DNA of 64,000 bases from a virus, in the IMG/VR virus record IMGVR_UViG_3300037067_026753, one strand, 5' to 3'. Within the stretch, counting starts at the first letter, position 1; each line of letters opens with the position of its first letter. Below the pieces are notes generated by a model that worked only from the letters and a program-made list of their open reading frames with translations, was not told where the DNA came from and searched no databases. Shown here in pieces: positions 33,949 through 34,450 of this stretch. A program made the position numbers and the translations under genes.

Positions 33949-34086
33949 CGGCTTAACTCCCCGTTCTTTATTTTTAAGAGGGAGAACCAGACTACCCTGC
34001 CTGGCTCTCCATTATGTAACATCATTTATGGATTTCAGGTCCACTATGTTGTTGTTATGATCAGGAATCGAAACCATTGCTTTTAA

Positions 34087-34190
34087 AGATAAATCCCTCA
34101 CTCTTCTATTGAGCTACAGACCCTCATGATAGACATTGCATCTACCGTGAGGGTCTGAGCGGATTTGCACCGCCAACAAGGGTTCGTAAA
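34087..34190 (-). tRNA. second, less canonical permuted tRNA-like unit (anticodon UAC or UAU)
   Basis: TTTACGA-ACCCT-TGTT-GGCGG-TGCAAAT-CCGCT-CAGACCC-T | 26-nt linker | GGGTCTG-TA-GCTC-AATAGAA-GAGT-G-AGGGA-TTTATCT; acceptor 7/7 WC; D-loop lacks GG, T-loop TGCAAAT. Confidence 0.35.
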
Positions 34191-34297
34191 GCAATCCCCC
34201 AATATCCCAACCACCTTCCCTCTGAATCTGGGACTTTCAAAAATTTGACTCTGACACTAAAACTGGTATGCAAACAACTAACACTAATCTTCTCACT

Positions 34298-34391
34298 GCA
34301 ACAGAGCAGTACTCTAACCGGACTAAGCTACACCCACCATATTTTTAAGGGGTAGGTGGCCTGATTTGAACAAGCGCCTCTGCTCTATCAG
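34298..34391 (-). tRNA. circularly permuted tRNA gene (3' half - 13-nt linker - 5' half); anticodon GAU(Ile) or GUU(Asn) depending on junction
   Basis: minus strand: CTGATAG-AGCAG-AGGC-GCTTG-TTCAAAT-CAGGC-CACCTAC-C | ccttaaaaatatg | GTGGGTG-TA-GCTT-AGTCCGGTTA-GAGT-A-CTGCT-CTGTTGC; acceptor 7/7 bp (one G-U), anticodon stem 5/5, canonical T- and D-arms, U8, U33. Confidence 0.55.
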
Positions 34392-34450
34392 AACCACTTC
34401 GTAAGGGTGATCCCATGTGCTGCAAGAAGTTTTTTATGATAAAACTGAGT

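Follow-up and report, generated by a model that had tools for sequence, protein, structure and literature searches.

We analysed a 64-kb stretch of viral DNA (IMG/VR record IMGVR_UViG_3300037067_026753; hereafter the window), in which an intergenic gap directly behind the gene for DUF7873 holds a conserved RNA-type structure with two modules shaped like transfer RNA (tRNA). Coordinates are positions in the 64-kb window, and the RNA features all lie on its minus strand. The region free of open reading frames (ORFs) spans 33877-34450 (574 nt) and is flanked by minus-strand genes. Upstream of it lies the DUF7873 gene (34451-35218, minus strand), whose 255-aa product matches Pfam PF25283 from end to end (E=7.6e-67) and whose stop codon TAA occupies 34453-34451. 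Downstream is a small gene with its likeliest start at the ATG at 33876, 6 nt past a GGGAG ribosome-binding site; the alternative GTG start at 33948, called by the ORF finder, would make the gene overlap a terminator. The ORFs that fall fully within the gap encode only 36-43 aa, and a 65-aa ORF with a TTG start on the plus strand (33863-34060) runs over the terminators and the start of the downstream gene. The G+C content of the gap is 42%, compared with 36% for the window. An initial annotation of this DNA had described the gap as the only large non-coding one and had placed the locus at 34030-34450. It is the largest in the window, but ORF tiling reveals that some 300-400-nt intervals elsewhere are also poor in ORFs (e.g., 38399-38756 and 36998-37298), and the locus, ORF-free as described, extends about 105 nt past that 3' boundary, to about 33923.

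ARAGORN found no tRNA and no transfer-messenger RNA (tmRNA) in the 64-kb window, and 8 kb of window DNA had no match among 50,697 phage records. A scan against Rfam, a check that the initial annotation had proposed, returned no family in the window at gathering thresholds, but it did produce a sub-threshold, full-length alignment to the YrlA family. The two units in the gap were recognized with a covariance model, R1, whose 33 seed sequences come from other loci, none from the window and one from the close homologue L001 (L numbers denote related loci). Over both strands of the 64 kb, R1 matches exactly two sites, units 2 and 1, with no other match at E<=10. These are the units that had been annotated as permuted; both are real and the permuted topology assigned to them is right. 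A strict descriptor requiring all four helices to be perfectly paired gave 0 matches in five shuffles of ~490 kb. Altogether R1 has 90 matches in 86 sources, 89 of them on the strand of DUF7873, and the remaining one (L010) was fetched unoriented.

Covariation was measured on these 90 model-aligned matches (83 distinct), in an alignment that is fitted to R1. Standard pairs fill 94.8% of cells as against 60.1% in shuffles, double-sided changes occur in all 21 pairs, and the covariation score is 0.892, compared with 0.228 in shuffles and at most 0.18 with slid partners. Pairing within the helices, namely a T arm (5 bp with a 7-nt loop), a D arm, and an acceptor stem of 7 bp, reaches 97-99%, and each position shows 4-6 pair types. 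The suspicion that the gap is a structured-RNA locus is borne out by this conservation of structure, with covariation across many homologous loci. The gap is a real, conserved multi-domain RNA-type structure with two tRNA-shaped modules, which have no anticodon loop and stand at a fixed position after DUF7873.

The position relative to DUF7873 is a general property of the family. Eighty metagenome loci were fetched by DUF7873 homology, 73 of which extend at least 300 nt downstream of the gene, and 58 of these 73 carry a tRNA-like unit with a closed acceptor on the same strand, within 700 nt downstream of DUF7873. Comparable matches elsewhere in 690 kb number only 4. The RNA follows DUF7873 down to 36% protein identity. 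We found 301 homologues of DUF7873 and 375 IMG/VR stretches that encode it; among the 80 of these IMG/VR loci that were fetched, 77 have the RNA, and of the three exceptions one is truncated, while the other two have additional sequence at the acceptor loop, an insertion of ~170 nt in one case and an HNH endonuclease gene in the other. In GTDB genomes DUF7873 is found mainly in Bacteroidota bins, with the RNA at 14 of 38 loci. Among the contigs with DUF7873 but no RNA are several large ones from Bacteroidota (Cytophagales/Microscillaceae), some up to 1 Mb; in L203, L193, L198, and L174 (~2238 onward), what comes after the apparently chromosomal DUF7873 gene is a plain terminator or the next gene, and the tRNA-like RNA is missing.

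DUF7873 is the only conserved neighbor of the RNA. No other protein family near it is common to more than 6 clustered loci, and no Pfam family among 149 neighbor proteins occurs in more than 3. The non-coding stretch itself is conserved in the syntenic loci L001, L004, L005, and L010; between the window and L001 the non-coding DNA is 79% identical, while the proteins homologous to the eukaryotic major vault protein (MVP) encoded further downstream are 64% identical. The RNA homologue nearest to that of the window is carried by an IMG/VR contig of 195 kb. A search of IMG/VR with an 18-nt pattern from unit 2 returned one true homologue (L010) and five ordinary tRNA-like sites, and R1 also scores weakly, at 19-38 bits, on loci rich in tRNA genes (e.g., L024 and L128). 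In the literature on DUF7873/PF25283, phage tRNA mimics, and permuted phage tRNAs we found no description of this RNA family and no paper on DUF7873. The RNA in the window is a member of a large, apparently undescribed family of phage RNAs, nearly always situated just after DUF7873.

Unit 1 (34303-34386) is a tRNA-like domain with a closed acceptor stem (R1 35.1 bits, E=2e-10; descriptor score 21/21). Its 7-bp "anticodon-like" stem, AGAGCAG/CUGCUCU (34386-34380 with 34309-34303), is followed by a 4-nt variable region, a T arm with the loop UUCAAAU (34375-34359), an 8-bp acceptor stem (34358-34351 with 34338-34331) joined by the closing linker CCUUAAAAAUAU (34350-34339), and a D arm with GG in its loop (34328-34311), which is preceded by UA. 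The nucleotides that make tertiary interactions in tRNA are retained, and the 8-bp acceptor helix ends in a G:C pair that we take to resemble G-1:C73 of tRNA-His. RNAalifold, applied to a plain MAFFT alignment of 8 two-unit loci, finds the T, acceptor, and D helices of this unit, with 12 of 17 pairs compensated.

Unit 2 (34057-34214; R1 56.9 bits, E=4e-19) is a module resembling a Y RNA. An interrupted basal helix of ~21 bp (34214-34189 with 34082-34057) is separated by an asymmetric internal loop of 5 x 10 nt from the tRNA-like core (34182-34095). The core has the T loop UGCAAAU (34169-34163), a 10-bp acceptor stem (34157-34148 with 34126-34117), an extra hairpin that extends the acceptor arm (34146-34128), and a D arm (34114-34100). 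In the same 8-locus alignment RNAalifold finds 52 pairs for unit 2, of which 29 are compensated, and these include the basal helix and the acceptor extension. The initial annotation had pointed to a T-loop-like sequence at 34064-34075 (GGTTTCGATTCC / GGUUUCGAUUCC) with flanks that do not pair. Its position and its unpaired flanks are as described, but RNAalifold and compensatory changes place it in the 3' strand of the unit 2 basal helix rather than in a T loop, and its local flanks are unpaired because the partner strand lies in 34214-34189. There GGUUUCGAUUCC pairs with the upstream GGUUGGGAUAUUGGGG, ~115 nt away, with compensatory changes in L001, L013, L016, L018, and L019; the likeness to a T loop is absent in L001, which has GGUGUUCGAAUUUUG.

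The two units are separated by a spacer (34215-34302), which the initial annotation had put at about 110 nt; it measures 88 nt (34302-34215). YAG triplets start within it at 34298, 34286, 34280, 34265, 34259, 34253, 34230, and 34224, giving spacings of 12, 6, 15, 6, 6, 23, and 6, mostly 6 nt or multiples of 3, and the conserved motifs UACCAG and GAAAGUCCCAGAU are also present. The periodicity is a property of the family: across 62 non-identical loci a YAG spacing of 6 occurs 72 times as against 11 expected (z=17), and spacings of 12, 18, and 24 are enriched too (z 8.6-9.8). The spacer is the homologue of a YAG-rich tract that in many single-unit members is enclosed by a long-range 5' helix (e.g., GGGUCA...UGACCC, with compensatory variants). 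For such a 5' helix in the window we found only a weak 5-bp candidate, GGGAU (34414-34410) with GUCCC (34234-34230), which has no support in L013 or L016.

Three further elements lie on the 3' side of unit 2. A small 13-nt hairpin, GGACCUGAAAUCC (34030-34042), is the same in L001 and L010 and one base off in L004 and L005, while L013 and L016 have a different hairpin at this position. It stands where many family members have an ordinary tRNA gene: 11 of 27 scanned loci have one 30-160 nt past the unit, usually at ~40-60 nt. These embedded genes, between the unit and the hexaloop hairpin, encode Ile-GAU/UAU, Tyr, Lys-UUU, Arg-UCU, and Glu-UUC tRNAs and occur in L018 (1790-1865; with the unusual anticodon AUA) and, 40-60 nt past the unit, in L036, L037, L045, L063, L068, L071, L079, and L087. 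They include several isoacceptors that anticodon nucleases are known to attack.

The second element is a terminal GC-rich hairpin of 12 bp (33981-34010) with the hexaloop AGGGUA (33998-33993), which is a signature of the family. The window and the four loci of the L001 clade have the same central 24 nt (CCAGGCAGGGUAGUCUGGUUCUCC), and L010 differs by one compensatory G-to-A change in the 5' strand. Among the 56 loci that have such a hairpin, 46 have [A/C]GG in the loop, mostly as a hexaloop of the AGGNUA type, while the stems vary freely in sequence; they measure 8-14 bp across the family, mostly 10-14, and about half are followed by a clear U run. The exact hairpin pattern has no match in IMG/VR, since it deviates from the relatives at a single base. 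Pairing of the AGG hexaloop with a CCA/CCU end was considered and rejected, with no consistent complementarity visible by eye. The third element is an intrinsic terminator found by a terminator scan (33923-33962), a 12-bp stem (33962-33934) followed by UUCUUUUUUU, which marks the end of the transcription unit; in relatives the U run directly follows the hexaloop hairpin itself. The expectation that the gap might hold further RNA elements thus holds for the YAG-repeat tract, the long basal helix, the small hairpin, the hexaloop hairpin, and the terminator.

On the 5' side, the leader (34390-34450) opens with the 36 nt that follow the stop codon and continues as a local hairpin, GGGAUCAC / GUGGUUCU (34414-34407 with 34397-34390), as seen in the sequence and its minimum-free-energy fold; it has little conservation even among the closest relatives. 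Across the family the RNA starts 7-40 nt past the DUF7873 stop, and in many single-unit loci the first conserved helix begins 7-20 nt past it, compared with 36 nt for the first hairpin of the window. A scan of the gap for sigma-70-like promoters found none, and an intrinsic terminator follows the RNA. The proposal that the gap holds a promoter for the array is accordingly not supported, there being no sigma-70-like promoter between the DUF7873 stop and the RNA. Since the RNA lies close behind the stop codon, has no promoter-like site before it, and has a terminator after it, it looks to be co-transcribed with DUF7873 rather than made from its own promoter. An AT-rich motif, UUAUCUUUAU (UUUUAUCAUAAA in the window, 34443-34432), is conserved just past the DUF7873 stop in the two-unit clade (L001 4125-4140; L013 4783-4795; directly after the stop in L015, L016, and L018), and could be a candidate phage promoter or processing signal invisible to a sigma-70 scan.

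The acceptor end of the module carries a signature in the family as a whole. N-CCA directly follows the 3' strand of the 7-bp acceptor in 39 of 66 members (59%), and the linkers that close the stem include many short A/U-rich ones ending in U; some members, like unit 2, extend the acceptor helix instead. The closing loop is 7-49 nt long, reaching up to ~190 nt in two loci. Insertions of ~170-190 nt are found in the acceptor loops of L158 (2400-2590) and L183 (2560-2790), and in L111 (2400-3000) the HNH endonuclease gene takes the position of the acceptor loop, next to a 5' half that looks degenerate. The wide range of closing-loop lengths, together with the HNH insertion, suggests that the loop is dispensable.

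YrlA is the only Rfam family that aligns to this RNA over its full length. YrlA RNAs are the tRNA-like Y RNAs of bacteria and phages that are bound by Ro60/Rsr (PMC4201824; bioRxiv 10.1101/312249), and their architecture is closely similar: a long helix made by the flanks leads through a variable region, a T arm, an acceptor stem closed by a loop, and a D arm back to the helix (PMC4201824). Each of these, with a T arm, a D arm, a loop-closed acceptor, and entry through a helix of the 5' and 3' flanks, is found in the window, and YrlA loci likewise often have two RNAs and co-transcription with a partner gene. The Rfam model RF02553 aligns full length to the window with 27.5 bits (E=0.001), short of its cut-off of 69, and scores 27.2 bits on L001 and 30-43 bits in 12 of 20 other loci (10 full length, 2 partial). 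What differs is the partner: the fixed neighbor here is DUF7873, with no Ro60 gene nearby and no Ro60 site. The conserved 5'-strand motif of the Ro60-binding helix, GNCGAAN0-1G (PMC4201824), occurs in 0 of 65 distinct members, with ~1 expected by chance, in a search of the 60 nt upstream and the first 14 nt of the match. The window sequences UUACGAAG and UUACGAAC resemble it but lack the first G and are unconserved in L001. TROVE/Ro60 has no match among the window ORFs of at least 60 aa and is not among the Pfam families seen at least twice in the 149 neighbor proteins. The 114-position Rfam model, moreover, contains none of the extra domains conserved in the present family, namely the tract of YAG repeats, the terminator hairpin with its AGGNUA hexaloop, and the embedded tRNA gene.

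Two other systems share single features with this RNA. In two-piece (circularly permuted) tmRNA, the intervening segment is removed and the two pieces stay paired. As in that RNA, the T arm and the acceptor 3' strand with CCA are encoded before the acceptor 5' strand, with a variable segment between, but the RNA described here has a complete D arm and is devoid of pseudoknots and of a tag reading frame. The Rfam tmRNA models (cyano, beta, and standard) reach 10-22 bits in the T-arm/acceptor region only, and ARAGORN finds no tmRNA in the window or the scanned relatives. The RNA-binding proteins TRAP, which reads GAG/UAG repeats, and HutP, which reads UAG repeats, provide a parallel for YAG triplets at a fixed spacing, which by analogy suggests one site per subunit; the spacing here is 6 nt, however, and DUF7873 has no detectable similarity to either protein.

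DUF7873 is probably the protein partner of the RNA, as its position across the family suggests. An AlphaFold2 model of it (pLDDT 86) has no fold or sequence match in PDB or BFVD, and DUF7873 has no family in PHROGs, PADLOC, or NCBIfam. Its predicted secondary-structure elements run beta-alpha-beta-beta-alpha-beta, with a long beta-hairpin. Cas7 chains recur among its non-significant Foldseek matches (E ~0.03, TM ~0.13), and these Cas7-like matches, taken with the 6-nt periodicity of the RNA, are a lead, not evidence.

We give roughly even credence to the explanation that we favor, in which the gap would encode a Y-RNA-like tRNA mimic that is co-transcribed with DUF7873, probably bound by it, and serves as the scaffold of a phage ribonucleoprotein (RNP). 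On this account the transcript of DUF7873 in a huge phage would carry, as its 3' part, a structured RNA of ~500 nt. Each module consists of a T arm, a D arm, and a loop-closed acceptor, with the "anticodon" stem running into a helix made by the flanks, and would be recognized by proteins that handle tRNA. The YAG tract, the basal helix, and the AGGNUA hexaloop hairpin would hold DUF7873, probably as an oligomer with ~1 subunit per 6 nt, and the resulting particle would be analogous to Ro60-Y RNA. In most members, and plausibly in unit 1, RNase P would cleave where the acceptor 5' strand has its 5' end, the linker would be trimmed to N-CC(A), and the end would be repaired by the phage CCA-adding enzyme to give a two-piece tRNA mimic with a free CCA end. 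This cleavage and trimming is proposed because of the N-CCA signature, the U at -1, the loops that tolerate insertions, and the precedent of YrlA from M. smegmatis. The RNA may act as a scaffold, decoy, or tether for tRNA-directed host or phage factors during infection. The position after DUF7873, the R1 matches, the YAG period, and the AGGNUA-type hairpin that characterize the family are all found in the window. The earlier suggestion that a CCA enzyme and an exonuclease encoded in the window could service such RNAs fits the family's N-CCA signature; outside the window, genes for CCA enzymes are found in the vicinity of DUF7873 in 3 loci and a gene for RtcB in 1.

Several observations count against this explanation. 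Some chromosomal Bacteroidota copies of DUF7873 have no RNA, so that the protein can exist alone, and DUF7873 itself, which is mildly acidic with a pI of 6.0 (family median 6.55), shows no recognizable fold for RNA binding. The 5' long-range helix is not clearly recoverable in the two-unit clade. Unit 1 has C-CCU and no true CCA; unit 2 also lacks a true CCA, and its 10-bp stem is extended by a hairpin. With no true CCA in either unit, processing is less certain in the window than across the family, and for unit 2 it is doubtful. Ro60 was, moreover, looked for in 64 kb of a contig of ~424 kb.

A broader form of the explanation, which we put forward only tentatively, is that DUF7873 and its RNA may constitute a new and widespread class of phage RNP, an independently arisen analogue of Ro60-Y RNA. 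The mimic would be cut in the acceptor loop, two-piece, CCA-ended, and possibly chargeable, DUF7873 would oligomerize on the 6-nt YAG repeats, and the particle would divert or tether tRNA-directed factors such as host anticodon nucleases, other tRNA-targeting defenses, and tRNA repair enzymes.

Other explanations must be weighed against the same evidence. The RNA might be a cis-acting element in the 3' untranslated region of the DUF7873 mRNA, concerned with processing by RNase P or exonucleases, with stability, or with autoregulation as an operator, and have no function in trans; a comparable case is the tRNA-like mascRNA that defines the 3' end of MALAT1. This would agree with an RNA that starts directly past the stop codon, ends in a terminator, and is strictly on the strand of the gene, while the downstream genes vary. 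We consider it unlikely, since several hundred nucleotides with 3-4 separately conserved domains, tRNA tertiary nucleotides, and a hexaloop exceed what a 3' end needs, bona fide tRNA genes are embedded in the DUF7873-linked RNA unit, and the YrlA precedents with the same topology act in trans (PMC4201824). That the RNA is itself a true YrlA/Y RNA, with a Ro60 (Rsr) partner encoded elsewhere in the ~424-kb phage genome or in the host and only an incidental or auxiliary link to DUF7873, we regard as improbable. Among Rfam families YrlA is the best match and the sole relative, Ro60 and YrlA are both known from phages (PMC4201824, PMC12135203), and RNA-repair genes (RlaP, CCA enzyme, and ligases) are present in the window. 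Against this, all scores stay under the cut-off (at most 43 versus 69 bits), the Ro60 motif and a TROVE protein are missing from the members, window ORFs, and recurrent neighbors searched above, and the candidate Y RNAs of Chen et al. adjoin the Ro60 gene (PMC4201824), while the fixed neighbor here is DUF7873. The scattered weak matches in L024 and L128 show that tandem tRNAs can score with such models, and tRNA genes are often neighbors of the RNA, as would be expected if the gap held the degenerate remains of a tRNA array, junctions of tRNA genes, or an attachment site with a partial tRNA. That origin is in our view extremely improbable: the window has no tRNA, the strands of the acceptor-closing and of the "anticodon" helix find their partners inside a single unit, with covariation throughout the family, position and strand are fixed relative to DUF7873, and the non-coding DNA is more similar to that of L001 than the MVP proteins are (79% against 64%).

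Two further alternatives would each give the RNA a familiar identity, and we find both very hard to credit. Permuted tRNA genes, as in Cyanidioschyzon merolae and some archaea, have the 3' half before the 5' half, joined via the acceptor ends, and give decoding tRNAs by bulge-helix-bulge splicing and circularization. The modules might similarly be tRNA genes of a permuted or split type, with a transcript that the phage ligase and phosphoesterase circularize or ligate and that is then cut in the acceptor loop to yield functional decoding tRNAs. They share the 3'-half-first order, canonical T and D loops in unit 1, a covarying acceptor stem, and N-CCA in many members, and the genes of the window include ones for ligase, phosphoesterase, and CCA enzyme. 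What they lack is an anticodon loop: the stem instead continues as a covarying two-strand helix, with the 5 x 10-nt asymmetric loop in unit 2. There is also no 3-4-3 bulge-helix-bulge motif and no conserved anticodon-like triplet in the flanks, and the implication in the initial annotation that these are permuted genes for decoding tRNAs therefore fails. The gene content is moreover typical of bacteria and phages (NAD-dependent ligase, OmpA domain, and SLT, with an M23 peptidase in related loci), bacteria are not known to possess the archaeal/eukaryotic splicing endonuclease, and ARAGORN, which can detect permuted tmRNA, is silent. The remaining candidate is a prokaryotic or viral vault RNA. 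Eukaryotic vaults contain small RNAs, and here a small structured RNA lies 1.1 kb upstream of a gene (30293-32917), part of the same string of genes, whose 874-aa product has the shoulder and vault-repeat domains of MVP. The order DUF7873, RNA, R2K ATP-grasp, MVP is kept in L001, L004, and L005, and a related MVP has a PARP gene nearby. The RNA, however, co-occurs with DUF7873 and not with MVP, and no TROVE protein of the Ro60/TEP1 kind is encoded by the window ORFs of at least 60 aa. R1 has no match in two MVP loci without DUF7873 (L002 and L003), L013 retains DUF7873, the RNA, and the HPr-like gene (located after MVP in the window) but the interval between them is too short to accommodate MVP, and among the clustered loci MVP neighbors DUF7873 only in the window's own clade. 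MVP was rejected as the RNA partner on these grounds, there being MVP-only loci without the RNA and, in L013, the RNA without MVP.

Known cases in which non-coding RNAs mimic tRNA are Y RNAs, tmRNA, and viral 3' ends, and we know of no established purpose for the tRNA-like module in Y RNAs. A YrlA-type module in hundreds of phage genomes, many of them 100-440 kb, in which the Ro60 site is absent and an uncharacterized protein and extra RNA domains are found instead, offers an independent natural experiment in the workings of a tRNA-shaped decoy or scaffold. The family appears to be of the Y-RNA/tRNA-mimic kind with a different protein partner, and is apparently undescribed. It gives a first functional handle on DUF7873, is a candidate for a new Rfam family, and may be linked to the tRNA-centered arms race between phages and bacterial defenses. 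Such loci should, with due caution, not be read as permuted tRNA genes or vault RNAs.

The exact proteins of the window occur on a 424-kb contig of a metagenome-assembled genome at NCBI labelled "Candidatus Nanoarchaeia archaeon". This contig is probably that of a huge bacteriophage and the archaeal bin label wrong, judging from the NAD-dependent ligase, OmpA domain, and SLT, the M23 peptidase and phage replication genes in related loci, and the relatives in IMG/VR. Genes for end repair are scattered through the window, all on the minus strand: a CCA-adding enzyme (50820-52136), RlaP, an RNA-repair nucleotidyltransferase of the Pol-beta type (53724-54398), a YhaM-like 3'-5' exonuclease with OB and HD domains (12119-13117), an ORF with a weak match to the candidate-defense phosphoesterase family PDC-S10 (57342-58220), a short ATP-dependent ligase-like protein (58355-58960), and the NAD-dependent ligase (54869-56830). 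Other large or unusual proteins are an 853-aa protein with a type VI secretion system Hcp domain (21251-23812, minus strand), a 766-aa protein with Listeria-Bacteroides repeats and an FGE-sulfatase domain (23816-26116, minus strand), and a C39-peptidase protein (16276-17697, plus strand).

The MVP homologue is encoded on the minus strand after a gene of the R2K-clade ATP-grasp type (32921-33679, minus strand). We found 284 relatives of this MVP, many in bins labelled Patescibacteria, and an MVP-based search of IMG/VR returned no relatives. One related contig has a PARP gene (WGR, PARP_reg, and PARP domains) two genes upstream of MVP, recalling vPARP, and two others have a Thg1-like gene close upstream of MVP. 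The related loci concerned include L003 (3803-5233) and L002 (3119-3922). L002 additionally contains a TnpB/Cas12f-like (OrfB_IS605) gene (10631-11758), whose 3' end lies over a match to RAGATH-18 (11664-11728; 26.6 bits versus a cut-off of 44.9) that is probably the guide (omega) RNA of this TnpB gene.

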